From the NCBI GenBank assembly GCA_018110905.1, contig JAGBAZ010000064.1, positions 63,249 through 95,248 on the forward strand: a stretch of DNA of 32,000 bases. The letters run 5' to 3'. This stretch comes from Oscillospiraceae bacterium. Its GTDB lineage: Bacteria > Bacillota > Clostridia > Oscillospirales > Ruminococcaceae. Each line of letters starts with the position of its first letter. Position 1 is the stretch's first letter. Made by a program: the position numbers and the translations under genes. Under the pieces are notes generated by a model. That model made no database searches. It was not told where the DNA came from and was given only the letters and a program-made list of their open reading frames with translations. This document shows, piece after piece, positions 2,118-28,210 of the stretch.

Positions 2118-2183
2118 AGAATCCCTCCCATACATCAATTAACAACAATGTATTATATCATTTGCAAAACATAAATTCAACCG

Positions 2184-2255
2184 TTTTACTAAAATTTATT
2201 TAGAGTAAATTATTTTACTAAATTTATTGATTATTTTAAAAATATGTGTTATAAT
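2184..2255 (+). promoter_or_regulatory. sigma-A type promoter of the cyclase operon with two operator-like direct repeats
   Basis: TTGATT (2227-2232), 17 nt, TATAAT (2250-2255) with TG at -15/-14. Direct repeats TTTTACTAAAATTTATT (2184-2200) and TTTTACTAAATTTATT (2213-2228); the second abuts and overlaps the -35. Confidence 0.5.
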
Positions 2256-2305
2256 TTCATTCGAAGAATAATCATCATAAAATTCAAAAGAAAGCGGTGT
2301 AAAAC

Positions 2306-4840: not shown

Positions 4841-4897
4841 AAATATTTAAGGAAAAATCTTTTATATCCCCCAAAATATATTATGCTTCCAGCATAG

Positions 4898-4926
4898 TTT
4901 ACAAAAACTGACATTAGTATTATAAT
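4898..4926 (+). promoter_or_regulatory. sigma-A type promoter of the TIR operon
   Basis: TTTACA (4898-4903), exactly 17 nt, TATAAT (4921-4926), located 50 nt upstream of ATG 4977. Confidence 0.6.
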
Positions 4927-4976
4927 AAAAATATCTATAACTCCCATTAAAATGTAAATTTGAGGAGGAACTTGCT

Positions 4977-7418: not shown

Positions 7419-7465
7419 ACCGAATAAATGTTTCTGAATTTTAACGATTGAATAGAGGTAATAAT

Positions 7466-9286: not shown

Positions 9287-9289
9287 TCA

Positions 9290-10009
9290 ATGAAATTCAG
9301 TTTTAACGAACTTGGCAAAAAAGAAAAATCCGTTCTTCTTGTTTACGGAATTGTAGCGTTCATCTGTATTCTTGCATTCATCATTATTCCTTTCCCGAAA
9401 AGCGCTTCCAGCTGGCTTGCGCTTTTGTTCCTACTTGTTTCTTTCTGCGTAAGCCTTTATGCGATGAAACTTGCTTTTGAAAACGGAAAAGAGATCATCA
9501 GCAAAATTTACGGTTTTCCGATTTTCAAAATCAGCGTTTATTACGTTGCTGCCCAGGCAATTTTCAGCGTTCTTGTATGCGTTGTTGCAAGCTTTATCAG
9601 ACTGCCTTATTGGGTAACTCTTCTTGTTTCCGTAATCCTTCTCGGCGCAGCTGTTATCGGAATCGTTATTACCGATAACGCAAGGGATATTATCGAAGAT
9701 ACCGAAAAGAAAGACGTTCGTGATACAAAGAAAATCACTCTTTTCAAAATTGATATTGCCGGAATTGTTGACCGCTGCAAAGACGAAACCGCAAAGAAAG
9801 AACTTGAAAAACTTTCCGAAGCATTCAGATACAGCGACCCGGTTTCCAGCGATGCAACCAAGGAACTTGAGGACGAAATAACCGAAGAACTTGAGGAACT
9901 CAAAAAAGAAGTTGCCGAAAACGATGTGGAAGATATCATCGAAAAAGCAACCGAAATTTCCAACCTTCTTGCAGAAAGAAACAAAGTTTGCAAGGCGTTT
10001 AAGAAGTAA
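9290..10009 (+). CDS. 4-TM membrane protein with acidic helical cytoplasmic tail
   Basis: ATG 9290 lies 3 nt after the SPFH stop, preceded by GGGAGGG. Four hydrophobic helices (VLLVYGIVAFICILAFIIIPF, WLALLFLLVSFCVSLYAM, ISVYYVAAQAIFSVLVCVVASFI, YWVTLLVSVILLGAAVIGIVI) are followed by a D/E/K-rich tail. Confidence 0.8.
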   Translation: MKFSFNELGKKEKSVLLVYGIVAFICILAFIIIPFPKSASSWLALLFLLVSFCVSLYAMKLAFENGKEIISKIYGFPIFKISVYYVAAQAIFSVLVCVVASFIRLPYWVTLLVSVILLGAAVIGIVITDNARDIIEDTEKKDVRDTKKITLFKIDIAGIVDRCKDETAKKELEKLSEAFRYSDPVSSDATKELEDEITEELEELKKEVAENDVEDIIEKATEISNLLAERNKVCKAFKK

Positions 10010-10030
10010 TCAAACAAGGATGCGTTGTTT

Positions 10031-10477
10031 ATGACAGTAAAAGAAGCAAGCCACATTTTTAATCTTGATGAAAAAGAAATTAGAAAAAGAAAACAAGATG
10101 ATATGATTATAGGTGTAAGAAAAGACGGAAAGTTTATTTTTATACCAGATGATACAAAGATTATACCGTCTAAAATAGAAATTAAAGCTTTTTTGTTAGA
10201 AATAATTAAGTATAAAAATAATGATAAAATTGTGTTGGATAGAAGTTTATGCCCAAATAACGACACTTTAATTGCTATTGCAGAATATCTTTATAAAAAA
10301 GGCTTTATCGGTGAATTTGATTATTTTAATAACGCTTACAATTTTTTTGATGAAGTAAAACTCACCGACAAAGGTATAGAGTTCATATTTGAAAAAGAAT
10401 CACAAAAAATTGCCAAATACCAATTTTTTCCCATTCAACTGAACCCAAATAATTCTTTAGTAAGTTTAACATTGTAA
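10031..10477 (+). CDS. small protein with excisionase/MerR-type HTH-like N-terminus
   Basis: ATG 10031 (the track start 10025 is TTG). MTVKEASHIFNLDEKEIRKRKQDDMIIGVRKDGKFIFIPDD resembles the Xis-type winged HTH (..tvkEaa..lgvs..tirr....g.i....g....ip..). The gene is visibly more AT-rich than its flanks. Confidence 0.55.
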   Translation: MTVKEASHIFNLDEKEIRKRKQDDMIIGVRKDGKFIFIPDDTKIIPSKIEIKAFLLEIIKYKNNDKIVLDRSLCPNNDTLIAIAEYLYKKGFIGEFDYFNNAYNFFDEVKLTDKGIEFIFEKESQKIAKYQFFPIQLNPNNSLVSLTL

Positions 10478-10499
10478 AAAATTTTGCGGAGGCATAAAC

Positions 10500-13127: not shown

Positions 13128-13145
13128 AATCCGGAGGACAGAAAA

Positions 13146-15584: not shown

Positions 15585-15608
15585 ACTTAACAAGGAAGTG
15601 TTCATAAA

Positions 15609-18224
15609 ATGGCAGTATTCAAATGTAAAATGTGCGGCGGAGCACTTGAAGTAAATAACGGCGAAAGCGTTGCAGTATGTGATTATTGCGGCACTAAACA
15701 GACTTTGCCGAAAACCGATGACGGCGTTGTTGCAAATCTTTTCAACCGCGCAAATAATCTTCGCCTTAAATGTGAATTCGATAAAGCGGAAGCAATCTAT
15801 GAGAAAATTCTTGAGCAGGACAATACCGAAGCAGAAGCTCATTGGGGCATAATTCTCTGCAAATACGGCATTGAATACGTTGAAGATCCGAAAACTTTTG
15901 AACGTATTCCCACCTGTCACAGAACTTCCTATGAATCCATAACCGCAAGCGCAGAATACCTTGCAGCGCTTGAGCATGCGGATTCTGTGCAGAGAGAAGT
16001 CTATGAGCACGAAGCTAAAGCAATTGATTCTATCCAGAAGAACATTTTGAGCATCGTCAAAAACGAAAAGCCATTCGATGTTTTTATCTGCTATAAAGAA
16101 ACGGACGAAAATGGAAAACGCACTGTTGATAGCGCCATCGCCAACGATATTTACTATCAGCTTACTCAGGAGGGTTTTAAAGTTTTCTATGCCGCAATCA
16201 CCCTTGAGGACAAGCTCGGTCAGGAATATGAACCTTACATATTTGCCGCTCTTAACAGTGCAAAGGTTATGCTTGCAATCGGAACAAAGCCGGAATATTT
16301 TGAAGCGGTATGGGTCAAAAACGAATGGAGCCGTTTTATGAACCTTATGAAAACCGACCGTTCCAAGCTTCTTATTCCTTGCTATAAGGATATGGATGCT
16401 TACGATCTGCCGGAGGATTTTGCTCACCTTCAGGCGCAGGATATGGGTAAAATCGGTTTTATCAACGATGTAGTCCGCGGCATCAAAAAGGTTATTGTAA
16501 AAGATGAGCCGAAAGTGGTTGCACCGGTTGTTACAAAAGTTGTCGCTTCTTCCGGAAGTGAACCGAACACCGCCCAGCTTCTCAAGCGTGCATTTATGTT
16601 CCTCGAGGACAGGGAATGGGAAAGCGCGGACGAATACTGTGAAAAAGTTCTTGACCTCGATGCGGAAAATGCAGAAGCATATCTTGGAAAGCTTATGGCG
16701 GAACTCAGAATCAGTAAAAAAGAATATTTGAGTAGTTGTTCTGACCCGTTCGACAACCGAAACAATTACAAAAAAATAATTCGTTTCGGTGATGAAAAAC
16801 TTTGTGAGGAACTTAAGAGTTATAACAAGCAAATCAGAGAGCGCAACGAACTGAACCGTAAAAATGTAATTTACAACGCCGCCTGCGGATTTATGAATTC
16901 AGCAGAATCTGAAGATGATTATAAAGAAGCGGCTGCAAAATTTGGCGAAGTTTTGAACTTTAAGGACGCAAAAGCAAGAAAAGAAAAGTGCATTGATTTG
17001 GCAGAAGAAGCAAGAAAAGAAACAATTTACCAGCAAGCAGAGAGAAAATATAGTTGTTCTTCATTTGCTGAAGCTGCAGAAACATATGGAAAAATATCCG
17101 GGTATAAAGATTCTGATAAAAGAAAAAAAGAGAGCCTTGAAAAAGCTGAGGATGAACGAAAAAATTCAATTTACCTCGAGGCATGCGAATATAAAAATAC
17201 ACAAACTATTGCTGGATATAAATATGCAATAGAAAAATTTGAAACGATTTTGGAGTGGCGAGACGCTTCTAATCAAATAGAAATTTGTAAAGACAGGATT
17301 TGCATACTTGAACAAAAGGAAGAAAAAGCAAGAATCGAAGCACAGCATAAAGCCGAAGTGGATAGAATTGCGGCAGAAAAGAGAAAGAAGAAAAATAAAA
17401 TAATGGCAGCAATCGTGACGTCAATCGCACTTATTTCTATTGCTGCAATCGTTGTGTTTATAACTGTAATTCAGCCGCAGAACGAATATAATGCTGCTGT
17501 TGCTCTTGTGGAAGAAGGAAAATATGAAGAGGCGTATAATATTTTTATTAAACTTGGAGATTATAAAGATTCTGCTGAAATAGTGTCTAGTGTCCGTATA
17601 CAAAAAATTAAAAATCTTGGAGATATAAAAATCGGTGATGAAATAATACTAGGAGCGTATGAACAAGATAACGATACATCTAATGGCAAAGAAGAAATAA
17701 AATGGATTGTTATTGATTCAAATGGTGGTAAAATTCTTGTTATAAGCAAATATGCCCTTGATTGTAAACCATTTAATACCAAAAATGAAAACACTACTTG
17801 GGAAAAATGTACTCTTCGTAGTTGGTTGAATAATGATTTTTTGAATTTTGCTTTTTCTGAAGCTGAAAAGGAAGTTATTCCAACAATGGTAATTGCGGGA
17901 GCTTGGAATAGTGAACAAAAAACAAGTTCTGGTAATAATACTCAAGATAAAATCTTCTTATTAAGTATAAGTGAGACGGATAAATATTTCAAAACTTATA
18001 AAGATAAATTATGTAAACCGACAGCATATGCTATAGCTAATGGGGCGTTTGCTGACGAATCAAAAGGAAATTGTTGGTGGTGGCTTCGCTCTTTTGGAAA
18101 TGCCCAAAATTTAGTTGAGTATATTAACTATAAAAATACGGATCAAAAGAACAGTTTTAATGTGGATTTTGCCCGGTGTGCTGTCCGCCCCGCAATGTGG
18201 ATTGATTTATCGGCAGTGGAATAA
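15609..18224 (+). CDS. zinc-ribbon / TIR-domain protein, paralog D; single TM helix and C-terminal WWWLRS-motif domain
   Basis: RBS AAGGAAG; 24-nt gap after paralog C. Same chassis (Glu codon 239 at 16323-16325). Repeated ..GYKDS/..FKDA helical repeats. TM helix IMAAIVTSIALISIAAIVVFITVI (nt ~17403-17470) is preceded by KRKKKNK. C-terminus: IKWIVIDSNGGKILVISKYAL..TLRSWLNN..CWWWLRS..VRPAMWIDL. Confidence 0.85.
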   Translation: MAVFKCKMCGGALEVNNGESVAVCDYCGTKQTLPKTDDGVVANLFNRANNLRLKCEFDKAEAIYEKILEQDNTEAEAHWGIILCKYGIEYVEDPKTFERIPTCHRTSYESITASAEYLAALEHADSVQREVYEHEAKAIDSIQKNILSIVKNEKPFDVFICYKETDENGKRTVDSAIANDIYYQLTQEGFKVFYAAITLEDKLGQEYEPYIFAALNSAKVMLAIGTKPEYFEAVWVKNEWSRFMNLMKTDRSKLLIPCYKDMDAYDLPEDFAHLQAQDMGKIGFINDVVRGIKKVIVKDEPKVVAPVVTKVVASSGSEPNTAQLLKRAFMFLEDREWESADEYCEKVLDLDAENAEAYLGKLMAELRISKKEYLSSCSDPFDNRNNYKKIIRFGDEKLCEELKSYNKQIRERNELNRKNVIYNAACGFMNSAESEDDYKEAAAKFGEVLNFKDAKARKEKCIDLAEEARKETIYQQAERKYSCSSFAEAAETYGKISGYKDSDKRKKESLEKAEDERKNSIYLEACEYKNTQTIAGYKYAIEKFETILEWRDASNQIEICKDRICILEQKEEKARIEAQHKAEVDRIAAEKRKKKNKIMAAIVTSIALISIAAIVVFITVIQPQNEYNAAVALVEEGKYEEAYNIFIKLGDYKDSAEIVSSVRIQKIKNLGDIKIGDEIILGAYEQDNDTSNGKEEIKWIVIDSNGGKILVISKYALDCKPFNTKNENTTWEKCTLRSWLNNDFLNFAFSEAEKEVIPTMVIAGAWNSEQKTSSGNNTQDKIFLLSISETDKYFKTYKDKLCKPTAYAIANGAFADESKGNCWWWLRSFGNAQNLVEYINYKNTDQKNSFNVDFARCAVRPAMWIDLSAVE

Positions 18225-18235
18225 GGAGTGATAAA

Positions 18236-18433
18236 ATGCCGAACTTAAGTCAGATGCAGGGTGTTTCTGCACATTTGGAAACGCTTAAAGCAAAAGATTC
18301 CCGAAGGCATCCTGCACATTGTATTTTTGCAGAGGGAAAAGGTATAAACCGCGTTTGCACCTGCCCTCAATGCGAAATTTATTTACAGCATTGTGGAACT
18401 GCAAAGCTGTGTGGATATTATGAAAAGAAATAA
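18236..18433 (+). CDS. small Cys-rich hypothetical protein (65 aa)
   Basis: Strong RBS AAGGAG lies 7 nt before ATG 18236, 11 nt after the paralog D stop. Six Cys and several His (..HCIFAEG..CTCPQCEIYLQHCGTAKLCGYY). No family recognised. Confidence 0.5.
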   Translation: MPNLSQMQGVSAHLETLKAKDSRRHPAHCIFAEGKGINRVCTCPQCEIYLQHCGTAKLCGYYEKK

Positions 18434-18449
18434 TTAGCTGTTTACAGAA

Positions 18450-19030
18450 AACGCCGAGCCAAGCCTGCTTTACAGGAAGGTGTAACGACTGGACACGGAG
18501 CAACCCAAGCGGTTGAAGGCACAGTCTGAACTTGCAGGTGACTGCAAGAGCCACACAGAAATGATGTGGCCTCCGCGAAAGCGGTGTAACAAAATTGAAA
18601 ATTAATGTATGTCAAAAAAATAATGACAAAAATTAAGAAATTCGCCTCCACTGTTTTCGCAGCAGTGAGCGAATAGCTTAAGACGGTAACAGCGAATATA
18701 GGTTCCGCAATCATCAGCGAACTAATAGCTGATGCGATAATAAAACAATTTAGTGTAGGTTCTGTTGAGCGTACATAGGCAAACGCTGAATTTATTTGTG
18801 CGATAGTTTTTTTGATATTGTTGTTAGTACAAAAGACTATAGAAAACTATAACAACCTCCTGGAAAACCGTAAAGCCGCAATAACGGTTGACAGAAAAAA
18901 CTGCGGTAAATATTTAAATATGGAGGTAAGAAAGTTGCCTCCCTACACAGTAATGTGTAGCAAACAACTCCGTAAATTCGGTGAAACTCTGTATGCAATG
19001 ACCGGTATAACAATTTGTTTATACCGGTCA
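18450..19030 (+). ncRNA. candidate structured RNA or DNA-structure region (ORF-poor, hairpin-dense)
   Basis: No convincing ORF on either strand. Plus-strand hairpins: CTTGCAG-GTGA-CTGCAAG (18531-18548), GCCACA..TGTGGC (18550-18570), CCGC-GAAA-GCGG (18573-18584), GACTG..CAGTC (18487-18526) enclosing CAACC-CAAGC-GGTTG, TTCGC..GCGAA (18656-18673), CATCAGC..GCTGATG (18712-18734), GGAGG..CCTCC (18922-18942), CTACACA-GTAA-TGTGTAG (18943-18960) and ACCGGTATA..TATACCGGT (19001-19028). Three loops are GNRA only when read on the + strand. Confidence 0.3.
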
Positions 19031-19038
19031 TTCTTTTG

Positions 19039-19374
19039 TTAAATCTCCTCCGGCAAAAGTACCGCTTCCTCGATTTTTGTAATCGCTTTGCAAAACTTTT
19101 CAAAATTCTGGTTGTATTTTTCCGCGTCGATGTTTCCGGTAGCGTTTGCAATTCGCGCGATCTGGTTTAGGTTGTTTCCGATTCCGTAAAGCTGACGCAT
19201 CATGCTCCAGAAAACCTCGTCCGGGTTTGCTTTCGGAACATAACCATTTATATACATTCGGATATATGTTTCCTTCGGAAGTCCTGCCTTTTTTGCGTTT
19301 TTCTCAAGAGTTTTCATCTCAGTTTCATAGAGGCGGACTTTTACGGATTTGGTTCGTTTTCTCATTCTTATCAC
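19039..19374 (-). CDS. mobC: MobC-family relaxosome accessory protein
   Basis: ..RTKSVKVRLYETEMKTLEKNAKKAGL..YGIGNNLNQIARIANATG.. is the RHH plus IGNNLNQIAR signature of the MobC family. No relaxase ORF follows it. Confidence 0.8.
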   Translation of the reverse strand: MIRMRKRTKSVKVRLYETEMKTLEKNAKKAGLPKETYIRMYINGYVPKANPDEVFWSMMRQLYGIGNNLNQIARIANATGNIDAEKYNQNFEKFCKAITKIEEAVLLPEEI

Positions 19375-19391
19375 TCCTTTCTGTTGGGGTT

Positions 19392-19478
19392 GCAGGGGAT
19401 TTCACCTGCCAAACTGCCTTTGGCCGTCCAAAGGCGATGCTTGCGACGGATTACCGGCGGATTCTCACCGCCGGTAAT
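19392..19478. promoter_or_regulatory. hairpin cluster upstream of mobC; candidate oriT
   Basis: GCAGG..CCTGC (19392-19409), CCTTTGG-CCGT-CCAAAGG (19417-19434) and a perfect 11-bp inverted repeat ATTACCGGCGG-ATTCTCA-CCGCCGGTAAT (19450-19478), directly 5' of mobC. Confidence 0.35.
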
Positions 19479-19605
19479 TTTTACAAAAGAGAAAAATATG
19501 TTTGTTTGTTAATGATACAACTTTGGTATCAAAAAATATAAAAATCGATATGAATATTCAGTTTCTTTTTTCAGACGGTAAATCATGGTGCTGAAAAGAG
19601 ATAAA

Positions 19606-20396
19606 TCAAGCACCGGATTCAAAAATGTTGCGCAGTTCTTTGAGTTTTTCAGCTGCATTCTGTTTTCGTATGTTTGCATTGTTGATTTTTACAGGAACAC
19701 AAAGCTCCAGAATTCGGTCATATATCCTTGCTTTGGCAAGATTCTCAGGATTTTGGATTTCATCAAGGGTGAGGTTAGTTGTGACAATTAGAGGCTTTTT
19801 GCTGCGGTAGCGGCTGTCGATCACGCTGAAAACCTGTTCCAGCGCGAATTCGGAATTTCGCTCGATTCCAAGGTCGTCTATTATCAACAGTTCACATTTT
19901 ACTAAGGATTCAAGATATCGGTTTCGTTCTTCAGAAAAGATTCCGGTCAAGGTGTTGATGATTTTTGAAAAGTTGGTCATAACAACCGGGATACCTTTTT
20001 CAATCAGGGCGTTTGCAATGCAGCCGGCGAAAAAGGTTTTTCCGGTTCCGACGTTTCCCCAGATGAGCAGTCCGAGATTTTTCTCCTTCATTTCCGCCCA
20101 GCGGTCAACGTAAGTTTTTGCCTTTTCCATTTCCGGGTTATAGCCTTTGTCGTTTTCAAAGGTGTATTCGGAAAACGCTCGTCGGAAAGTCCGCTTTTCC
20201 TCAAAGCCAGAACCCTTTGACGAAAATCCCGCTTCTTTTCTTTTCGGCGCTGTTCGTTAATTCTGTCAAGCTGGCATCGGCAACTTATGGGAACAAGCTG
20301 TTCCCGGTCGAAGATCGAAATTCTCAGCTGCCGGGGAGTGCCGCAGTTTTTGCAATAAACAATTCCGTCCTCGTTAAGATATTCATCGGGTTTCAT
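19606..20396 (-). pseudogene. DnaC/IstB-like AAA+ helper ATPase with N-terminal zinc ribbon, split by a -1 frameshift
   Basis: The upstream ORF (MKPDEYLNEDGIVYCKNCGTPRQ..LRKSGLSDERF) and the downstream ORF (..[YTFENDKGYNPE]MEKAKTYVDRW..LLIWGNVGTGKTF..LLIIDDLG) are consecutive parts of one protein. The frames join if the A4 run at 20172-20175 (T4 on the coding strand) were 5 nt long. The start ATG 20396 overlaps the upstream stop as ATGA and is preceded by AAGGAGG. Confidence 0.7.
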
Positions 20397-20845
20397 AAGC
20401 TTTCGTCCTCCTTGCATTCATAAATTCTTTTATAATCTTTATCTTTGTTATTGCTTATATAGGGTGGGGAAGGTTTTCTTTCCGTCAAAGGGATAATATT
20501 CTGTCTTTCAGTAAAAGGCGGGATTTTTACATAAATCCTGTTTGTAAGTCCGCCGCCCCTGCGCTTTCTTGCGATAAGGTCAATGCCTTCCAAAGCCCGC
20601 AAAGAGCTTTTTACGGTCATTTCGCTTTTGCCGATAACAGTTGCCAGTTCCTTGAGAGAAAAGGAAACAAAGGCGTTTCCACAGTCGTCAATCCATTTTT
20701 CGCTTTTGAGCGAAAGCCTTGCTCTGTCGAGCAATAAGCAATAAAGGATTTTTGCGGTTTCGTTTATCCGGCGTTCGCTGATCAGGAATTTAGGGAAGAA
20801 CATATACGGAGGAAAGACCGTTTCTTTTGTGATAAAATTGTTCAT
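20393..20845 (-). CDS. RepA_N-type replication initiator / winged-helix protein
   Basis: ..PKFLISERRINETAKILYCLLLDRARLSLKSEKWIDDCGNAFVSFSLKELATVIGKSEMTVKSSLRALEGIDLI.. matches the RepA_N pattern (l..ls..Ak.lY.lL.dr..lS..n.w.De.G..y..f...el). RBS GAAGGAGAGG. Confidence 0.7.
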   Translation of the reverse strand: MNNFITKETVFPPYMFFPKFLISERRINETAKILYCLLLDRARLSLKSEKWIDDCGNAFVSFSLKELATVIGKSEMTVKSSLRALEGIDLIARKRRGGGLTNRIYVKIPPFTERQNIIPLTERKPSPPYISNNKDKDYKRIYECKEDESL

Positions 20846-20869
20846 AACGTCCTCTCCTTCGTACTTGTT

Positions 20870-21235
20870 TTATTCGCCGAGAAAATCCCAGTCAAAGTTT
20901 TCTTCGGGTTTGGATTTTTCAGGAGGAGGGGATGAGGAGCTGTTTATTACGGCGGCACAGCCGGAGAGAAAAAAAGGAAGGGATTTTTCAATGGAACTTT
21001 CAACGGAAGAAACTATTCGTTCGATAAATTTTTCTTCCTTTTCTCTTGTTTCAAGATAAGGATCATTTTCGCTTCGGTAGTATCTTTCAAAGAAATATAC
21101 AATAGCTATTGAAACAGCGTTGCTGTATGATTTGAATTTCTTTTTATCCATCGTTTGAAGATATTGCCATGCTTTCTTTTGAATTTCTTTTCCAAGATTG
21201 AAGCGAATATTTGTGGTTTTAACTTCGTTTTTCAT
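20870..21235 (-). CDS. hypothetical protein, ParR-like by position (possible RHH N-terminus)
   Basis: Its start overlaps the parM stop as ATGA (21232-21235). The N-terminus TTNIRFNLGKEIQKKAWQYL resembles a ribbon-helix-helix strand-helix. The function is inferred from position only. Confidence 0.45.
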   Translation of the reverse strand: MKNEVKTTNIRFNLGKEIQKKAWQYLQTMDKKKFKSYSNAVSIAIVYFFERYYRSENDPYLETREKEEKFIERIVSSVESSIEKSLPFFLSGCAAVINSSSSPPPEKSKPEENFDWDFLGE

Positions 21236-22155
21236 TGGTGTTCCTTTCTGCGAAGAGAAGAATATGCGATATATTCATATCCCTTTGCGGTTGCACAGAT
21301 ATCGTCGATGATGGTTACTCGTTCTTTATCGTAGTTTCCGAAATTTTTGATAAGACAGCCACCGCCGCCGATGACATAGAGTCTTACCAAATCCGGATTG
21401 TATTCATATTTTCGCAGTATTGCGAAAATGTTGTTCACATATTGGTTTACGGTGCGGAGAATGCAGTCGAGATAAGGTTTTGCGATATCTGCGGTTCTTT
21501 TGCGTATAACGGTTTCTATAACGGAATCATCGATTTTTATTCCGAAATTATCAAGAACAGCATTTTTAGCGGCGATCATACATTGGTTTACGCCGGCTTT
21601 TTCCGTCCAGCAGCGGCTTTCAATAGGTTTTCTGTTGCTGATGTAAAGAATATTCATGGTTCCGTTTCCGATATCCACAAGAAGATTTGTTCCGTCAAAA
21701 TCGGATATTTTGCTGATTACGGCGGGGTATCCCTGGGGATAGATACTGCAACCGATAAAACGGATTTTGTAGTCTTTTCCGTTAAAACGGAATTCGGCGG
21801 TTTTGTTTTGCATAAGGTAGCTTCGGAATTCTTCGCGCTGTTTTCTTACCCATGTAAGCGGAAGTCCTGCGGCAAGATGAACATCTGCTTCTTTAATTCC
21901 AAAAGTATTCAGTTCTTTTGCAACAGCCGCAAGGGTGAGAAGGTAGTAATCATCATCGGATGATTTATCAGGGATAAATTCCTTATGTTCTTCGCCGATT
22001 CGATAAAATTTTCCGCCGTATTCAAGAATATTCCCGGCGAAAATCGGTTCGCTTTCATATTCGGTGATTCCGGCAGGGAAAACAGTGTTTGCGGTTTTAA
22101 TGTTGCCGTAACCGTGGTCAACGGCGATGATTTTGACATTGTTCAGGTTTTTCAT
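21232..22155 (-). CDS. parM: ParM/StbA-family actin-like segregation ATPase
   Basis: Start moved to ATG 22155 (MKNLNNV), 6 nt after GGAGGT. IIAVDHGYGNIKTA.. (phosphate 1), LLVDIGNGTMNI (phosphate 2) and YVIGGGG (adenosine) are actin-fold motifs. Confidence 0.8.
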   Translation of the reverse strand: MKNLNNVKIIAVDHGYGNIKTANTVFPAGITEYESEPIFAGNILEYGGKFYRIGEEHKEFIPDKSSDDDYYLLTLAAVAKELNTFGIKEADVHLAAGLPLTWVRKQREEFRSYLMQNKTAEFRFNGKDYKIRFIGCSIYPQGYPAVISKISDFDGTNLLVDIGNGTMNILYISNRKPIESRCWTEKAGVNQCMIAAKNAVLDNFGIKIDDSVIETVIRKRTADIAKPYLDCILRTVNQYVNNIFAILRKYEYNPDLVRLYVIGGGGCLIKNFGNYDKERVTIIDDICATAKGYEYIAYSSLRRKEHQ

Positions 22156-22251
22156 TTTATAACCTCCGTTCATTTTTTTGATTTGATGTTTTGCTTAGGA
22201 TTTGATTCGGTACCGTTTTTTTGAAAACGGTGCCTTTTTCTTTGCAAATTC

Positions 22252-22307
22252 ATTCTAACAAAACAAAAGAGAAACTACATTGAGCGGCTTTTGAGCGAAA
22301 ATTGAGC
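22252..22307 (-). promoter_or_regulatory. parM-operon promoter with three 11-bp-phased GCTCAA repeats (parC/operator candidate)
   Basis: Minus strand reads GCTCAAttttcGCTCAAaagccGCTCAAtg, then 20 nt, then TAGAAT (22252-22257) preceded by TGT. Hexamers start at + coordinates 22280, 22291 and 22302, spaced 11 nt. Confidence 0.5.
22278..22307. repeat. left arm of a perfect 30-bp inverted repeat
   Basis: CATTGAGCGGCTTTTGAGCGAAAATTGAGC is the exact reverse complement of 24778-24807. Confidence 0.95.
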
Positions 22308-22345
22308 AAAAAACAGCTTGTGCAAATTTTGCACAAGCTGTTTTA
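22308..22345 (-). terminator. rho-independent terminator of the STAND gene
   Basis: Stem ACAGCTTGTGC (22313-22323) / GCACAAGCTGT (22331-22341), followed on the minus strand by a T run (A run at 22307-22312 on +). It lies 17 nt past the stop at 22362. Confidence 0.75.
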
Positions 22346-22361
22346 AAATAGAATTTTGTTG

Positions 22362-24671
22362 TTATTTTGGATTTTTCAGAGCTTTCTGACCGGCTTTCCC
22401 AAGTATCGTACCGACATTTACGTAATCGTTTTGGATTTCATTTTTATATTCTTCAATCTTTTCGGGTTCGTCTTTAAAAATGTCTTCGTATATTTTCAGG
22501 GATTTTTTATAGTATTTTAATCCATTTTTGAAATCACTTTTCAGGTAGTAAATAAAACCTAAGGAACGAAGTATTTCCGCACATCCGAGAGTGTTATCAC
22601 CACCGGATTTTTTCATTATCTTAAGAACTTTTTCATACATCTTAACGCCGGAATCAAAATCACCGGTATCAACCAAAAGTGCAGAATAATTTGCAAGCTG
22701 GGTAACTGTGTCATAGGTTGTAAGATTATATTTTTCTATAATCTGTATTCCGCGTTCCATGTATTCTTTTGCTTTGGAATAATTATAAGAGATTCTATAA
22801 AGGCTGCCGAGATTACTGCAGATATTTGCAGTAAGAAGAGCGTTTTCCTCATTGATTTCTGTAATCAAAGAAAGAGCTTTTTCTTCTTCCTTGATTCGCT
22901 TTGTTATATTATCCTCAAGAAAAGCATTGTATTCATGGAGCAATGCTCTGTCAGATGCCGTTCCGACAGAAGGATCTTTTAAAACGGATTCCATTTTGAA
23001 AAGAATACATTTCATGCCATATTTATAGTTATAACAATCCATATAGGGGAAAACATCTTCCATAAAAAGCAGAAATTTTTCCGTATCATCATCTGTAATC
23101 ATATCAAGGATATTTTCAATAGTATGGAACATTGGAAAATAATAAGGAACAGTTTCTCCGTGGCGAAGACAAATGTTTTGCAAGCTTTTGATAAGAGTTA
23201 TGCAATTGTTTATTGTAGGTTTTGTTTCATCAAAGGCAACCTCTTTTATCATCGGGTGGAGCAAAATGCTTTTGCCAGAACCTTCCTGAACAAATCCCTT
23301 TTCAATCAAATCGTTTATTACGTTCATATTTTTAAGGTTCAGCCAATGGGCAAAAAGCTTTCCGCTTATTCCGGAAGAGGGAATAAAAGTGAGATTTCTC
23401 ATAAAATCTGTTTCATCTTTCGAGAGTTTATAAAGAGAAAACAGAGTGTGGATATGAATATAATAAGTTTCCTTTTCGCTTTTTCCGTCCTTGAAAATTT
23501 TAATTTTGTCGGAAGAATCAAGGGAAGCTTTTTCCTTCCGAAGTTTTTCAGCAAGTTCTTCCGGCTCAAGGATTCCGTTTCCCAAAAGTCTTGCGGCAAG
23601 CTCAACCGCAAGGGTATGACTATGAACGGAAAATATGATTTCACTGAGTGCTTCGGAATGCTTATTTGCGTCGGAATAATAATTTTCCATAAGCACAAGG
23701 AGCGTTTCCAGGTTTTCAATTTCCCGAAGATGAAGGCATTTTTGATTATCAAAGCGGCTTCTTGTCGTAAAAAGAACACGGCAGCCGAATTTGAGCACGG
23801 TCCAAAGCAGTTTTTCGTCTGAATAGGTCGTATCGAAATTGTCGATAATCAAAAGAGAATCGCTTTTAAGCGTTTTGAGAAAACGGCTGTGTCGGGAAAA
23901 ACGCTTTTCAAAATTATCTTCAGGGGAATCATCAGCAAAAACCATTTCGGCAATATCATGTTCAAGGTTACCGGAATAGGATATATATAAAATATTGGTA
24001 TATTCCTTTTTATAATGTTTTGCGTATGCTTTTGCGGTCTCGCTTTTGCCGATGCCGGGAATTCCAAAGAGGAATACTTTTCCGTTTTTGCATAAAAGTT
24101 CATGCAGAGCTTCAATTTCGCTTTCTCTTCCGCAGAAATTTTTGCAGGGAGCAGGTACCCCGCAACCGAAAATATAATCGCTTATACCAGGGGAGGTTTT
24201 TGTATTCGGAACGGATTTTGTTTTGGAATCACGCTTGATAAAATTCCGTTCCATGGCGAAAAGCAAAGCGGAAGCAATAAATTCTGCTTCTTCGGAATCA
24301 TTTTCGCATGGGTGTTTTTCAAGAAGCTTTTTCTTCTTCTTTTCGGAAATTCCGCTGTCGCCGATAACGATTTCATAAATTTCGTTAACTGCCGTGGCGC
24401 TGTCGAACATCAGCGGCAGAATGTGGTTTTTAATATCGGAAACCAGTTTTTCAAAATTTTCGCTTTTTGAATAAAAGGAGGGAATCTGAGGACTTACCCT
24501 GTTCTGACCGTTAAACCATTTGCAAACGGAACCGTAGTCGAAATAATATCCGCTTTCCGAAGCGAAGCTACCGAAAAGCTCGTAAAGCAGATCCACCTGG
24601 TCAATGCTTTTGTTTTCACTGATGTATTTTTTGATGGCTGTGATTACCGAATAAAAATCAAGGCGTTCCAT
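22362..24671 (-). CDS. STAND/NB-ARC-like P-loop NTPase with C-terminal TPR array and unknown N-terminal ~190-aa domain
   Basis: Start moved to ATG 24671 (MERLDFY), 4 nt after GGGAGGA. Walker A is FLFGIPGIGKSETAKAYA and Walker B is SLLIIDNFD. The C-terminal third has TPR-type repeats (..LGSLYRISYNYSKAKEYMERGIQI.., ..LANYSALLVDTGDFDSGVKMYEKVLKI.., ..LRSLGFIYYLKSDFKNGLKYYKKSLKIYE). Confidence 0.8.
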   Translation of the reverse strand: MERLDFYSVITAIKKYISENKSIDQVDLLYELFGSFASESGYYFDYGSVCKWFNGQNRVSPQIPSFYSKSENFEKLVSDIKNHILPLMFDSATAVNEIYEIVIGDSGISEKKKKKLLEKHPCENDSEEAEFIASALLFAMERNFIKRDSKTKSVPNTKTSPGISDYIFGCGVPAPCKNFCGRESEIEALHELLCKNGKVFLFGIPGIGKSETAKAYAKHYKKEYTNILYISYSGNLEHDIAEMVFADDSPEDNFEKRFSRHSRFLKTLKSDSLLIIDNFDTTYSDEKLLWTVLKFGCRVLFTTRSRFDNQKCLHLREIENLETLLVLMENYYSDANKHSEALSEIIFSVHSHTLAVELAARLLGNGILEPEELAEKLRKEKASLDSSDKIKIFKDGKSEKETYYIHIHTLFSLYKLSKDETDFMRNLTFIPSSGISGKLFAHWLNLKNMNVINDLIEKGFVQEGSGKSILLHPMIKEVAFDETKPTINNCITLIKSLQNICLRHGETVPYYFPMFHTIENILDMITDDDTEKFLLFMEDVFPYMDCYNYKYGMKCILFKMESVLKDPSVGTASDRALLHEYNAFLEDNITKRIKEEEKALSLITEINEENALLTANICSNLGSLYRISYNYSKAKEYMERGIQIIEKYNLTTYDTVTQLANYSALLVDTGDFDSGVKMYEKVLKIMKKSGGDNTLGCAEILRSLGFIYYLKSDFKNGLKYYKKSLKIYEDIFKDEPEKIEEYKNEIQNDYVNVGTILGKAGQKALKNPK

Positions 24672-24707
24672 AAAATCCTCCCTTCTCAAAAACTGTATTC
24701 TAAGGAA

Positions 24708-24736
24708 AATATATCAACAGGGAAAAGGCTTGTCAA
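24708..24736 (-). promoter_or_regulatory. sigma-A type promoter of the STAND gene
   Basis: On the minus strand: TTGACA (24731-24736), 17 nt, TATATT (24708-24713), about 37 nt upstream of ATG 24671. Confidence 0.55.
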
Positions 24737-24777
24737 CGCAAAATGAGAAGTTTACGGAAATTTAATATTTGATTTTT

Positions 24778-24807
24778 GCTCAATTTTCGCTCAAAAGCCG
24801 CTCAATG
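24778..24807. repeat. right arm of a perfect 30-bp inverted repeat
   Basis: GCTCAATTTTCGCTCAAAAGCCGCTCAATG is the exact reverse complement of 22278-22307. Confidence 0.95.
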
Positions 24808-24833
24808 AGAAAGACCAGAAAAACGACTATAAT
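24778..24833 (+). promoter_or_regulatory. rightward promoter/operator built on the right repeat arm
   Basis: The repeat arm is followed by exactly 20 nt and then TATAAT (24828-24833). The leftward parM promoter has the same geometry (arm, 20 nt, TAGAAT). Confidence 0.45.
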
Positions 24834-24906
24834 ACAGTCAGACGGAAAAACTGAATGATCAGTTGTTTTTCTGTCAATAATCTTTGCGGAAAGGACGGGT
24901 TCGATT

Positions 24907-25080
24907 ATGGGATTCAGAGTAAGACTTTTCCTCGACGGCGAAATGGTCGAACCGTCGGAGGTCAATATCAAAAGCGTCACCATTGACAGAATAGTGAACG
25001 ACTGCATTGATAATCGGATGCAGGCGGAAGAAACAGCTCCTAAAAAGAAAGCAAAAAGGCAGGAAGCACTATCCAGGTAA
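24907..25080 (+). CDS. small hypothetical protein (57 aa), not in the ORF track
   Basis: ATG 24907 follows AAGGACGG. Hand translation: MGFRVRLFLDGEMVEPSEVNIKSVTIDRIVNDCIDNRMQAEETAPKKKAKRQEALSR; stop TAA 25078-25080. It lies downstream of the 24828 -10 box. The antisense 135-aa track ORF looks non-coding. Confidence 0.4.
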   Translation: MGFRVRLFLDGEMVEPSEVNIKSVTIDRIVNDCIDNRMQAEETAPKKKAKRQEALSR

Positions 25081-25118
25081 GGAAAAGTGCTTTTTTGCAT
25101 AGAAGGCTTAAAAAAGCG

Positions 25119-25147
25119 TTGACAAAATTTCCATATCGTAGTACAAT
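25119..25147 (+). promoter_or_regulatory. sigma-A type promoter of the toxin-antitoxin pair
   Basis: TTGACA (25119-25124), 17 nt, TACAAT (25142-25147), 27 nt before ATG 25174. Confidence 0.6.
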
Positions 25148-25173
25148 GTATTACAGAGAAAGGGGCTGAATTT

Positions 25174-25395
25174 ATGAGTTTTTCCATCAGATTATCCGAA
25201 GAAGAAAAAAGCCTTGCGGAAAGCTATGCAAAACTTCATTCCGTTTCCGTAGGCGAAGCATTTAAAAGAGCGCTTTTCGAAAAAATCGAGGACGAATACG
25301 ATATTGCGATAGCGCAGGAAGCACACGCCGAATATGTTGCCGAAGGAGAAAAAAGCCGTCCCATTTCCGAACTTTGGAAGGAACTTGATTTATGA
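25174..25395 (+). CDS. type II antitoxin (RelB/DinJ-like, RHH)
   Basis: MSFSIRLSEEEKSLAESYAKLHSVSVGEAFKRALFEKIEDEYD is an RHH-type antitoxin N-terminus. Its stop overlaps the toxin start as ATGA (25392-25395). Confidence 0.75.
   Translation: MSFSIRLSEEEKSLAESYAKLHSVSVGEAFKRALFEKIEDEYDIAIAQEAHAEYVAEGEKSRPISELWKELDL
25385..25385. other. placeholder removed
   Basis: Not a feature; ignore this entry. Confidence 0.
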
Positions 25396-25661
25396 GCTAT
25401 AAAGTTGAGGTAACCGCAAGGTTTGAAAGGGAATTTAAAAAACTGGACAGATACACTCAGCGTATGATAAAAGCCTGGATTGAAAAGAACCTTGTGGGTT
25501 GTTCCGACCCAAGACAGCACGGCAAGGGCCTTACAGCGAATAGAAGCGGTCAATGGAGATACCGCATAGGCGATTACAGGCTTATCTGTGAGATAAAGGA
25601 CGGAGAATTGGTTATTCTTGCGCTTTCTGTGGGTCACCGCAGGGAAATATATGAAAGCTGA
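25392..25661 (+). CDS. relE: RelE/ParE-family toxin
   Basis: ..ARFEREFKKLDRYTQRMIKAWIEKNL..GKGLTANRSGQWRYRIGDYRLICEIKDGELVILALSVGHRREIY is a typical RelE/StbE-family signature. Confidence 0.8.
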   Translation: MSYKVEVTARFEREFKKLDRYTQRMIKAWIEKNLVGCSDPRQHGKGLTANRSGQWRYRIGDYRLICEIKDGELVILALSVGHRREIYES

Positions 25662-25796
25662 TTTTTTGAGCAGTAACAGAAATGTTTCTGCTTTTTCTTT
25701 TATAATTTTCCAAATTTCGCCATACATATGAAAATATCAAAATATACTTGTGTAAGGCGAAATTATATGATAGAATGATACCAAAGAACAGAAAGG

Positions 25797-27386
25797 GTGA
25801 TACCTTTGGCGGCAGAAAAAAAGAATTACAAACTCACGAACATACTTGAATTGAGCCGTTATATGAAAATCGCAATCGATGATTCCGTTGAAACGGATGA
25901 AAACGGAAATTATCTCATAAACGTGGGCTATCTCCGTGTTTCAACAGACAGACAGGCGGACCTTGGTTACGGCCTTGATTTGCAGGAAACGGCGGTAGTC
26001 AACTACTGTAAATTGAATGGTTATAAAAACCTCGTTCTTTTTATCGATGACGGTTATACCGGTACAAATATGGAAAGACCTGCGCTCCAGGGAATCATTT
26101 CCATGATTCAGGATTTCAACAAGGAAAAATCCCATATCCGGATCAACACAATGGTTATTCCCCGAATGGACCGTCTTGGCAGAACCCTGCTCGGAACTTT
26201 GCAGTTCATACAGGATTACATAGTTTCCAAAAAGGACAGTAAAAACAGCCTTATAAACGGCAACAAAGAGGACATAAACTTTGTTTCCGTTGCGGAAAGT
26301 GCAATCCGCATTGATAAAAACAATCCACAGAGCAAGTTTTTGCTTATGCTTTTCGCAACCCTTGCGGAGTATGACCGCGACCTTATCGTAAAAAAACTTA
26401 AAGACGGAAGAAAGGCGAGAGCCGCTTCCGGAAAATGGTCCGGCGGCGGAAACGTTCCCTATGGCTACCGTTATGATAAGGAGCTTTCGAAGCTGATAGT
26501 TATTCCGGAGGAAGCGGAAAAAATCCGGGAAATCTTCCGGCTTTACATCGAGGAAAAAGTTTCTCCGCAAAAAATTTCCGATATGCTCGGCTTCAAGGGA
26601 GACAGAATCATCACCCAGATCCTCAAACGGAAATCCCTAACTGGTTGCGTTATTTATGACGGAGAGGAATATGAGGGAGAGCACGAAGCAATCATTTCCC
26701 TTGACCGCTGGCAGGAAGCGCAGGACGAAATTGAAAAGAGAAGCGTCCACAGAGTGGATTCCAACTATCTGCTTTCTGGTCTCCTGGTCTGCGGCGAATG
26801 CGGTGCTAAAATGCGCTATCAGAAATGGGGCAAATCCGGAGAATGCAAAATCGTCTGCTATTCAAGGCAGAAATCCAAACCGAACCTTGTGAAAGACGAG
26901 AACTGCGAGAACGAGCTTTTCTGGGCGTACGAAATAGAAGAAGCCGTAATCGGCGAACTTTTCAGAATGACATATTTGGGAGATGAGGACAACGTAAAAT
27001 CTGCCGGAATAAATGTCAGGGATTCACTTACGGAAGAACTTAAAAAAGCGAACGCAAGGCTTAATTCTTACTACGCGAGACTTGATAAAATCGAGAACGG
27101 GGAAAGCGAAGAACTTCCGGATATTATTGAAGAAAAAATCCAGGAAATAAGCCGACAGATAAAATCAATCAAAGCACAGCTTCAGAGCGAAGATGAAAAA
27201 CAGAAAATCAGCAGAAAAGTCGGCAAGGCAAGGGAACTTTTCAAAACCATAAAAACCGCCTGGGAAACCATGACAGATAAAGAAAAACAATCCGTTAGCC
27301 AGGAACTTATTGATAGGATTATAATAAACAAAGATGGTACCATCGATGTCCATTTGAAACTGCAAAGTTGTTTTGCAAGAAGATAA
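25797..27386 (+). CDS. large serine recombinase (element integrase)
   Basis: Catalytic motif GYLRVSTDRQ, resolvase-type N-terminal domain, recombinase domain (GKWSGGGNVPYGYRYD), zinc ribbon (CGECGAKMRY..CKIVCYSRQ) and a C-terminal coiled coil. The start is uncertain (GTG 25797 or ATG 25863). A TTGTGT-17-TAGAAT promoter with TG extension lies at about 25748-25776. The gene ends ~60 nt from the element/host junction. Confidence 0.85.
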   Translation: MIPLAAEKKNYKLTNILELSRYMKIAIDDSVETDENGNYLINVGYLRVSTDRQADLGYGLDLQETAVVNYCKLNGYKNLVLFIDDGYTGTNMERPALQGIISMIQDFNKEKSHIRINTMVIPRMDRLGRTLLGTLQFIQDYIVSKKDSKNSLINGNKEDINFVSVAESAIRIDKNNPQSKFLLMLFATLAEYDRDLIVKKLKDGRKARAASGKWSGGGNVPYGYRYDKELSKLIVIPEEAEKIREIFRLYIEEKVSPQKISDMLGFKGDRIITQILKRKSLTGCVIYDGEEYEGEHEAIISLDRWQEAQDEIEKRSVHRVDSNYLLSGLLVCGECGAKMRYQKWGKSGECKIVCYSRQKSKPNLVKDENCENELFWAYEIEEAVIGELFRMTYLGDEDNVKSAGINVRDSLTEELKKANARLNSYYARLDKIENGESEELPDIIEEKIQEISRQIKSIKAQLQSEDEKQKISRKVGKARELFKTIKTAWETMTDKEKQSVSQELIDRIIINKDGTIDVHLKLQSCFARR

Positions 27387-27424
27387 AAAAATAAGGAATT
27401 GCCCGAAATAGAAGGCAATTCCTT
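27385..27424 (-). terminator. rho-independent terminator at the element edge, oriented against read-through from sigG
   Basis: Stem AAGGAATTGCC (27393-27403) / GGCAATTCCTT (27414-27424). On the minus strand it is followed by TTATTTTTTT (A run 27385-27391 on +). There is no T run on the + side. Confidence 0.65.
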
Positions 27425-27746
27425 ATGGATAAATACTGTTTCGACATTCTATAATCATCGGTACCCCATAAGTTGAAAAGCGCACATCAAGGCTTGGGTC
27501 AAAATTATCAATGGCTTTGATAAGACCGATGCAGCCCACCTGAAAAAGATCATCCGGAGGTTCTCCACGGCCGGAGAATTTTTGGACCACGCTTAAAACA
27601 AGCCGCAGATTTCCGTTTATCATTTTTTCTCTCGCGTTTTTGTCGCCGTTTTTTGCAAGTTTCAAAAGTTCTGTCTTTTCCTTTTCTGTGAGCACCGGAA
27701 GCTTTGCAGTATTGATCCCGCAGATTTCAACTTTACCGTAATACAT
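27423..27746 (-). pseudogene. sigG: sigG (sporulation sigma-G) 5' portion, interrupted by the element after ..VPMII
   Basis: MYYGKVEICGINTAKLPVLTEKE..AREKMINGNLRLVLSVVQKFSGRGEPPDDLFQVGCIGLIKAIDNFDPSLDVRFSTYGVPMII aligns residue for residue with my memory of B. subtilis SigG (..KVEICGVDTSKLPVLKNEE..NGNLRLVLSVIQRFNNRGEYVDDLFQVGCIGLMKSVDNFD..KFSTYAVPMIIGEIRRYLRD). After MII (nt ~27450) the ORF reads ECRNSIYP-stop instead of GEIRRYLRD. Confidence 0.8.
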
Positions 27747-27907: not shown

Positions 27908-28210
27908 ATGTTTGTAACTTTTGAAGAAATTTGTGAAAAAGAGATAATAAATATCCTTGACGGAAGCTCTCTCGGTTTTGTCGGGGACATTCTTTTTGAT
28001 ACAGAAACCAGAAAAATAAATGCGTTGATAATCAAACAAAAACCAAGATTTTTTGGTTTTTTAAAAAATGAAGAAGACCTTTCCATAGGCTGGGATAAAA
28101 TCGAAGCAGTAGGCAAAGACACAATTCTGGTAAAAATAAAAGAATGTGGCAGAATACACAACGAAAAACAAAATTTAATACAAAAATTTTTAAATATTTT
28201 CTTTTATTAA
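27908..28210 (+). CDS. ylmC: YlmC/YmxH-family sporulation protein (PRC-barrel)
   Basis: RBS GGGGAGGGG. ..CEKEIINILDGSSLGFVGDILFDTETRKINALII.. matches the YlmC/YmxH pattern (..gKeViN..dG..LG...D..iD..tG.I.aiil). Confidence 0.75.
   Translation: MFVTFEEICEKEIINILDGSSLGFVGDILFDTETRKINALIIKQKPRFFGFLKNEEDLSIGWDKIEAVGKDTILVKIKECGRIHNEKQNLIQKFLNIFFY

Follow-up and report, generated by a model that had tools for sequence, protein, structure and literature searches.

The window, the whole 32,000-nucleotide stretch of DNA analysed here (Oscillospiraceae bacterium, GenBank assembly GCA_018110905.1, contig JAGBAZ010000064.1, positions 63,249 to 95,248 of the forward strand), carries the 5' part of sigG on its minus strand, a large serine recombinase gene that converges on this part from the plus strand, and, beyond sigG and divergent from it, a ylmC/ymxH-family sporulation gene of the host (Table 1). 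In Bacillus and Clostridioides, SigG is established as a factor expressed and active in the forespore. Taken as a whole, the structural evidence makes it almost certain that a large serine recombinase has inserted a non-phage integrative element of 27.6 kb into the sigG gene of a ruminant-gut Oscillospiraceae, and that only the initial 137 bp of this element lie outside the window.

A first-pass annotation of this DNA had proposed that sigG is split by a serine-recombinase element, and the two halves of the gene bear this out. The minus-strand open reading frame (ORF) from 27746 to 27423 encodes 107 aa, of which residues 1-100 match Bacillus subtilis SigG at 64% identity (tblastn with a B. subtilis SigG query). 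Pfam finds Sigma70_r2 alone in this fragment; among the NCBIfam models SigG ranks top, with fragment residues 3-99 aligned to positions 3-99 of 258 in NF006071. The match stops at ..FSTYGVPMII (window 27450), where the annotation had placed the break, and beyond it lie 7 unrelated codons encoded by the element (ECRNSIYP-stop); the 5' part of sigG comprises codons 1-99/100, covering regions 1.2 to 2.4. The 3' half is not found inside the window by tblastn of the whole stretch; it stands at the element's opposite end, 137 bp beyond the left edge of the window, on the side where the annotation had advised looking for it. Contig L001, reached through the exact 453-aa product of window 2306..3667 as recorded in ruminant gut metagenomes, extends the window leftward (window base 1 is L001 7696; 12,270 of 12,271 overlapping bases are identical). 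A minus-strand gene at L001 7073..7528, in which Pfam domains Sigma70_r3 and r4 are found, belongs to the 3' part of sigG (161 codons); its SigG frame runs upstream of the called start as far as the junction and begins PMIIGEIKRFLRD.

Joining the two flanks in silico at the common core, ATCATCGG, removes 27,598 bp and yields an intact 256-aa ORF, in frame and leaving no scar (..FSTYGVPMIIGEIKRFLRD..), the restoration that the annotation had proposed to test for. The joined protein passes the SigG equivalog NF006071 with 410.4 bits against a cut-off of 372; it stays under the cut-offs of the SigF model TIGR02885 (295.5 bits; cut-off 321) and of the stricter SigG model TIGR02850 (401; cut-off 457). 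The insertion point is at sigG codons 96-99, between ..VPMI and IGE.., in region 2.4. Because the break falls inside this region, sigG is presumably without function while interrupted, and completion of a spore would require the element to leave precisely.

The uninterrupted form of the locus also exists. The joined 256-aa protein (P0001) is encoded intact, with 100% identity, in other samples and in the metagenome-assembled genome (MAG) GCA_017465425.1 (Oscillospiraceae bacterium); it is listed in 79 collection blocks, from which 24 contigs were read, 10 of these being shown. The order of neighbours at the empty site is that of the split locus (ylmC/ymxH, sigG, pcp), and the in-silico join is collinear with the 10 empty-site contigs over 5,008 bp, without gaps and at 98.0-98.6% identity; within sigG there are 7-13 differences, every one synonymous. 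The attB-like site expected on removal of the element is therefore seen uninterrupted, with the same neighbours on either side. A decayed paralogue of sigG, the other origin that had been considered for the fragment, is ruled out by the synteny, the collinear empty site and the synonymous differences; the fragment belongs to the native sigG locus, which has received a precise insertion. In the host intergenic region upstream of sigG, three direct repeats of the form TTGAGCACG(G/A)A(T/A/C)AT lie at window 27794-27856 with a spacing of 20-29 nt; they may be binding sites of a regulator.

The ends of the element have the organisation of large-serine-recombinase attachment (att) sites. The left junction reads ..CTCGCCGATT ATCATCGG AATGATTATAGAATGTTGAAAC.. 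and the right junction ..GTTTCGACATTCTATA ATCATCGG TACCCCATAAGT.., and the attP deduced from them is GTTTCGACATTCTATAATCAT-CGGA-ATGATTATAGAATGTTGAAAC. Because the symmetry centre of this attP is CGGA, the crossover dinucleotide is probably GG (CC in the sense of sigG). An 8-bp core at both junctions, inverted arms of 21 nt and, at the deduced crossover position, a non-palindromic central dinucleotide are thus all present. Each of the two junctions is found again, identical to the base, in numerous independent assemblies, which come from ENA and Logan and were produced by different pipelines and studies; they are therefore not an artefact of assembly. Since all data come from metagenome assemblies or MAGs and no isolate genome was found, a chimeric assembly that fused a mobile element to half of sigG has to be considered; against the recurrence of the junctions, their shared core and arms, the exactness of the join and the same architecture in 15 diverged relatives (below), its probability is negligible.

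The recombinase has three Pfam domains, PF00239 (Resolvase, 82.6 bits against a cut-off of 23.3, residues 43-214, with the motif YLRVSTDRQ), PF07508 (Recombinase, 36.5 bits) and PF13408 (Zn_ribbon_recom, 39.6 bits), the latter two likewise over their cut-offs, and its 526-aa product is on record on 6 contigs. The gene had been described as facing the junction close to its end, and this holds: its stop codon lies 68 nt from the junction core, and the stop is beside the junction in relatives too. A large serine integrase recombines attP with attB alone; the reverse reaction, attL with attR, needs a directionality factor. The candidate promoter of the recombinase gene is of housekeeping type, and its pattern, TTGnnn-17-TGnTAnAAT, recurs at the same place in the 13 loci set side by side as well as in L076, a predicted viral contig considered below. 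The motif AATTTCGCCATACATA, upstream of the promoter and recognisable in 5 of the 13 upstream regions (window, L022-L025), resembles the outer part of the att arms; its likeness to a Spo0A box is at chance level, one locus excepted. The hairpin after the recombinase gene had been taken for a strong terminator that stops transcripts entering from the sigG promoter. The structure is real, with a 14-bp stem and a T-run on the minus strand, and that role is possible but not needed, because the hairpin follows directly on the recombinase stop, as terminator-like hairpins do in several relatives, and may be the recombinase's own terminator, possibly working in both directions.

Upstream of the recombinase gene stands a conserved small ORF, and a homologue of it is found beside the recombinase gene in every family locus examined. 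The encoded proteins have 33-96 residues and follow the pattern M-E-F-K-V-R-L-F .. P-S-D/E .. I-D-R-I-V-N-D; only 7 close homologues were found. The window's small ORF has no match in Pfam, NCBIfam or PHROGs, and Foldseek matches its AlphaFold model, which is mediocre (predicted local distance difference test score, pLDDT, 70), to no structure in the PDB. Its position and its linkage to the recombinase make it the best candidate for the directionality factor. In the window a toxin-antitoxin pair separates the small ORF from the recombinase; relatives L022-L032 have no room for such a pair between the two genes. Logan contigs from 7 independent runs (L050, L051, L070-L074) all begin 129 nt upstream of the small ORF, at about window 24778, some of them ending within the 5' part of sigG, and they look like assembly-graph branch points. 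These contigs suggest that variants with differing cargo have in common a block made up of the small ORF, the toxin module and the recombinase, and their breaks suggest that several host backgrounds coexist in each sample.

The insertion in sigG is not peculiar to this element. In a scan of one genome per GTDB species, Oscillospirales MAGs (Acutalibacteraceae, Faecousia, rumen 'RUG' Ruminococcaceae and others) yielded 13 recombinases related to that of the window, with 50-70% identity to it. Flanks are readable for 12 of these, and in every case a sigG fragment stands beside the recombinase, broken between ..VPMI and IGE..; 4 of the 12 share the layout of the window, in which the recombinase gene converges on the 5' part of sigG, 7 have the opposite orientation, in which it reads into the 3' part, and the twelfth is the atypical locus L034, described below. 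Two relatives from rumen metagenomes (64% and 60% identity) have other cargo, pilin and sortase genes in one and UvrD/NYN-type genes and RepA_N in the other, and both adjoin a sigG 5' part with this same break. The 62.6-kb predicted viral contig L076 (IMGVR_UViG_3300032167_000130) ends with a small ORF, a recombinase (61% identity), an arm and CCAATGATCATCGGCGAG, the start of the sigG 3' part; its upstream genes are of phage-type nucleotide metabolism (ribonucleotide reductase, dUTPase, thymidylate synthase, HNH endonuclease, guanylate kinase), and it is probably a prophage.

In total, sigG is broken at the same residues in 15 of 15 independent relatives with readable flanks (12 from GTDB, 2 from rumen, 1 from IMG/VR), and the clade spans plasmid-like islands, a pilus island and a probable prophage. 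The fragments of sigG recovered, from the window's element in three hosts and from the 15 family loci, show no frameshift, internal stop or truncation. The family comprises 558 clusters at E<=1e-40, and among the 120 clusters listed 119 are at 58-74% identity to the query. On the evidence of their flanks, these recombinases form a large clade dedicated to the sigG site, every checkable member being found there in one orientation or the other. The two orientation classes (L024-L027, L030-L032 and L076 against the window, L022, L023, L028, L029, L062 and L065) break sigG at one and the same point; seen from the recombinase-proximal arm, the core is ..CAT CGG.. in one of the classes but ..CAT TCC.. 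in the other, which suggests that the central dinucleotide of attP is flipped between them.

Distant relatives (23-28% identity) in Paenibacillus and Alicyclobacillus adjoin fragments that resemble 3' parts of sigK and are probably of the classical skin type. Among deposited plasmids and phages there is no close relative (at most 34% identity), and none of the clusters checked includes a cultured or named isolate with a family member. One locus, in a MAG from Hadza gut (L034, contig CAKSFK010000003.1, 2800-5100), is laid out differently: its recombinase gene and small ORF follow immediately on the stop codon of sigG, beyond the 3' part towards the host DNA and outside the arm-bounded segment; an att arm and core stand at the usual break, followed by ABC-transporter genes, and no second arm occurs within the 7.5 kb examined. 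This layout could be a rearrangement, a nested insertion, a misassembly, or a recombinase left in the chromosome after excision.

The window's element has itself moved between hosts. Its TnpV protein is recorded, identical, in many sequencing runs, and wherever the left flank is present in these contigs the 3' part of sigG meets the element at the same base. In two further hosts, represented by contigs L052/L057 and L054/L055, identity to the window's element is 99.4-99.8% over its first 4.8 kb, whereas the adjoining host DNA (sigG 3' part and pcp) is only 82-84% identical; in L054/L055 the genes beyond pcp differ as well. The sigG 3' part is full length in all three host lineages. Near-identical copies that occupy one site in three diverged hosts show the element to be currently mobile: it has been transferred horizontally in recent time and inserted site-specifically. 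Movement between species as recent as this also means that it leaves the chromosome, at least now and then, while cells are growing.

The wider clade gives a similar picture. Vertical and horizontal inheritance were compared across five rumen species, all with a split sigG. For the 3' parts of sigG, synonymous divergence (dS) is 0.31-0.65 and the ratio of nonsynonymous to synonymous divergence (dN/dS) is 0.01-0.08; for the recombinases of the same species, dS is 0.16-0.34 and dN/dS about 0.01-0.06. The recombinase region is 92-97% identical between these species, against about 50-90% for the host flank. Recombinase dS below that of sigG, and a recombinase region more alike than the flanks, point to a recombination unit younger than its hosts and to horizontal spread; vertical inheritance of the unit within the rumen clade is set aside on the same comparison. 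The strong purifying selection on sigG suggests that these lineages still need sigma G and that an insertion which never leaves would be costly.

These findings bear on another account of the split gene, a dead-end knock-out, in which the insertion is effectively permanent, the carriers are asporogenous variants on course to lose sporulation, and sigG has become a pseudogene only recently. Gut-adapted Firmicutes commonly lose the ability to sporulate, which favours this account, and carriers do look like a minority, with 9 split-gene contigs against the 24 intact-gene contigs read (79 blocks) in the same species. It is nevertheless improbable: the recovered fragments of sigG are free of lesions, the recombinase is intact and under purifying selection, the frame of the small ORF is intact as well, and the element has moved between species very recently and so excises.

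The cargo of the window's element is that of a plasmid-like island with defence genes (Table 1), the latter comprising the Pycsar-type pair, the four TIR proteins, the STAND NTPase and the ParE toxin module. Phage structural, packaging and lysis genes are absent from the precomputed Pfam matches and from a PHROGs scan of the ORFs lacking a family match, and an Rfam scan of the window gave no match. A block at the left end starts about 45 nt from the junction (L001 7559-7602), and no promoter of its own is seen there by eye; because circularisation would bring the block into place behind the recombinase gene, in the same direction, its expression may depend on prior excision. The Pycsar-type pair has the arrangement that defines such systems, a PycC cyclase and an effector encoded by neighbouring genes; an overlapping ORF of 207 aa without a family match lies between PycC and PycTM. 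The four TIR paralogues share an N-terminal zinc ribbon (MAVFKCKMCGGDLE..), and 2 of the 4 have a C-terminal DUF6273; the Band_7/SPFH protein among them carries several zinc ribbons. Neither the paralogues nor the Band_7 protein matched a PADLOC model, and together they may be an undescribed set of defence genes. Among the called genes of the element there is no relaxase or secretion gene, only a NikA/MobC-like accessory protein; the element does not class as integrative conjugative or mobilisable, and its mobilisation in trans is possible. Beyond the 3' end of the NikA/MobC-like gene, in the usual place of a relaxase gene, about 800 bp (18225-19038) are poor in ORFs and contain a perfect 14-nt inverted repeat (AATGACCGGTATAA / TTATACCGGTCATT) at 18997-19032; this stretch could be a terminator, an origin of transfer (oriT) or the remnant of a lost relaxase gene.

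Table 1. Features of the element and its host flank, with positions as numbered in the window.
Feature	Position	Strand	Remarks
Element body	1..27453		Part of 27,598-bp element; window starts 137 bp inside the left end
Left-end block	7..1027	+	188-aa ORF (start outside window), 57-aa ORF, TnpV; gene calls, Pfam TnpV 138.7 bits
Xre-type regulator	1077-2138	-	Regulator module of the element
Pycsar-type pair	2306..4840	+	PycC cyclase 2306-3667 (PADLOC, 6.8e-35); PycTM effector ending 4840 (PADLOC, 1e-25)
Four paralogous zinc-ribbon + TIR proteins	4977..18224	+	4977-7418, 10500-13127, 13146-15584, 15609-18224; Pfam TIR_2, DUF6273
Band_7 protein	7448-9286	+	Pfam Band_7_1; among the TIR paralogues, along with two ORFs of no assigned family
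Plasmid-like backbone	19039..22173	-	NikA/MobC-like, IstB/DnaC-like, RepA_N initiator, ParM-like ATPase; Pfam
STAND NTPase with TPR repeats	22362..24689	-	Pfam
Conserved small ORF	24907..25080	+	57 aa, MGFRVRLFLDG..PSE..IDRIVND..; candidate recombination directionality factor
DUF6290 antitoxin + ParE toxin pair	25174..25661	+	Between small ORF and recombinase; Pfam
Motif AATTTCGCCATACATA	25713..25728	+	About 20 nt upstream of the first promoter hexamer
Candidate recombinase promoter	25748..25776	+	Housekeeping-type; TTGTGT, 17 nt, TGaTAGAAT
Large serine recombinase (integrase)	25806..27386	+	526 aa from TTG 25806; mechanical ORF start GTG 25797; Pfam
Terminator-like hairpin	27391..27426	-	Directly after the recombinase stop
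Right-end arm GTTTCGACATTCTATAATCAT	27438..27458		Inverted repeat, 20/21, of left-end arm ATGATTATAGAATGTTGAAAC; homologous arms in relatives
sigG 5' part	27450..27746	-
Right-junction core (attR) ATCATCGG	27454..27461		Same 8 bp at left junction, 137-144 bp left of window start
ylmC/ymxH-family sporulation gene	27908..28210	+	Host flank; NCBIfam TIGR02888; kept at the empty site

The locus agrees with the sporulation-gene intervening elements (the skin / vfbin / gin / SPbeta class) in that the ORF of a sporulation gene is interrupted, precise removal restores its frame, and the element's own recombinase gene stands beside the junction. It departs from them in lacking a mother-cell target, since the interrupted gene is sigG by model score. 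Reported targets of intervening elements are sigK, spoVFB, spoVR, spoIVFB, gerE, spsM, kamA and yabG, and restriction to the mother cell is stressed as the reason such elements persist (PMC4191935, PMC6957869, PMC5595907, PMC10747680). All characterised elements found in the literature lie in mother-cell genes (PMC4191935, PMC6957869), so that the contrast with skin-type elements drawn in the first-pass annotation is a fair one. No published account of a sigG-splitting element was found in the literature searched, and the sigG-targeting family is apparently undescribed; an earlier mention in passing or from in-silico work is possible, Suzuki et al. writing 'almost all'.

The reading preferred here, which as a whole stands about an even chance of being right, is that the element is a selfish mobile island that imposes a conditional block on sporulation, and not a skin-type mother-cell rearrangement. 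For such an island sigG would be a place to land that is both highly conserved and unexpressed in growing cells; large serine recombinases are often found in conserved, conditionally dispensable genes (PMC10083194). Excision would need the recombinase, under its family-conserved housekeeping-type promoter, and probably also the always-linked small ORF as directionality factor; it would not be limited to a terminal cell and could be reversed, the circle being maintained, perhaps, by the RepA_N and ParM-like genes until it re-enters attB.

Several points weigh against this reading. No contig in the ENA and Logan assemblies joins both element ends, and no mixed attB/attL state was seen there, so reversibility is deduced, not observed; an exact search for attP in JGI metagenomes and IMG/VR gave no match either, the JGI null being uninformative as that collection lacks the element itself. 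The small ORF is a candidate directionality factor without a family or fold match. The strong purifying selection on sigG (dN/dS 0.01-0.08) suggests that sporulation matters to the hosts, for which a knock-out uncoupled from sporulation would be costly and a solution coupled to it favoured. Lastly, the members of the clade have diverged to 50% identity yet all keep to a single forespore gene, a hint that convenience as a target is not the whole explanation.

The last two points lead to a rival, programmed germ-line excision, in which the element leaves at the onset of sporulation or in the forespore and sigG is restored in time; it is a tentative alternative, with less than an even chance. The small ORF, for example, would be under an early sporulation regulator, and the circle would be trapped in the non-dividing forespore or maintained as a replicon; after germination the recombinase alone would reinsert it in sigG, so that the element is inherited through spores despite its forespore target. 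Such a programme would explain why an insertion that fully inactivates sigG is carried by lineages in which sigG is strongly conserved, and why the clade is loyal to one site across deep divergence and differing kinds of element; two unrelated family members have replication and partition genes, and the conserved unit of recombinase and small ORF matches the layout of Clostridioides difficile skin and SPbeta (PMC5025042, PMC4191935). Synthesis of the recombinase is constitutive in those systems, and developmental control acts on the directionality factor alone. The layout of the sigG element is compatible with regulated excision of this kind without demonstrating it. Reversible excision outside a terminal cell is already exemplified by the comK prophage of Listeria (cited in PMC5025042), and this example, like the replication and partition genes, makes the rival mechanically plausible.

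Other observations count against this rival. A scan for sigma F, G, E, K and A consensus sequences upstream of the small ORF at 15 loci gave one sigma-A match and no match to a sporulation sigma factor, and a recurrent -10-like element, AATAAT/CATAAT, is read there. Likeness to a Spo0A box does not rise above chance, no attP contig was found, and the spread of the element is clearly horizontal and recent, so that inheritance through spores is not needed for its persistence. The particular sequence of forespore (or pre-division) excision, passage of a free and possibly replicating circle through spore dormancy, and reintegration after germination is given a similar, less than even chance.

The distinction matters because, on the accepted logic, a mother-cell target confines excision to a dying cell and the element stays in the genome of the spore, and a family dedicated to sigG does not fit. 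If excision is reversible, or if the element passes through the spore as an episome, the family would reveal new biology, in the development of spores as well as in the control of serine integrases; failing that, it would consist of widespread mobile switches that turn off sporulation in abundant gut and rumen anaerobes, with consequences for transmission, persistence and the way sporulation is lost. Excision in the forespore, if true, would be the first developmentally regulated DNA rearrangement in a bacterial germ-line compartment; it would add a new step at which the activation of sigma G is controlled, and it would be widespread among Oscillospirales of the rumen and gut. The family is also a source of many diverged integrases that share a single conserved and well-defined attB, and of a candidate for a new directionality factor, and it shows defence islands spreading between species by way of the sigG site.

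Among known systems, Tn4451/Tn4453 (TnpX, TnpV) are, like the sigG element, clostridial non-phage elements with a large serine recombinase and a TnpV gene, and the catalytic domain of TnpX is among the few relatives with a solved structure. TnpX elements are small mobilisable transposons with a loose choice of target. The sigG element differs in having one fixed target and in carrying TnpV at the end far from the recombinase.

Other parallels are found among elements that split host genes. The comK prophage of Listeria monocytogenes (active lysogeny) interrupts a regulator of the surviving cell, excises without being lost and reintegrates (discussed in PMC5025042), and so provides a working model for the survival of the sigG element; it differs in being a phage, in a competence gene, in a non-sporulating host, and the sigG element has been read from sequence only. 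SPbeta in spsM (SprA with SprB) and phi3T/phi12-5 in kamA are active mobile elements with a sporulation gene as attB, and the SPbeta-type unit of recombinase and directionality factor is exchangeable between kinds of element (PMC4191935, PMC6957869), just as the sigG family includes plasmid-like islands and a probable prophage; their targets are mother-cell genes, however, and excision limited to the mother cell has been shown experimentally. The gin element in gerE of Bacillus cereus ATCC 10987 resembles the sigG element, by description, in being a non-prophage element of 28.6 kb that uses serine recombinases and interrupts a short sporulation regulator gene (PMC5595907); unlike it, gin has three recombinase genes, its target is a mother-cell gene, and its excision during sporulation has been demonstrated.

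The skin elements, in B. subtilis sigK (SpoIVCA, Skr) and in C. difficile (CD1231 with CD1234), are alike in layout: a large serine recombinase element splits the ORF of a sporulation sigma factor, has inverted-repeat arms and a short common core, and rebuilds the gene on precise excision (for the sigG element, in silico). The skin target is the mother-cell gene sigK, whereas here it is the forespore gene sigG and the element is not phage-like. The sigK-type relatives break at positions that align to SigG residues ~159-197, the sigG element at residue ~100 (region 2.4), and its recombinase is only 23-28% identical to those of the sigK-adjacent relatives. The arrangement is thus mechanistically of the skin/SPbeta/gin type but fails the feature that explains this class, a mother-cell target.

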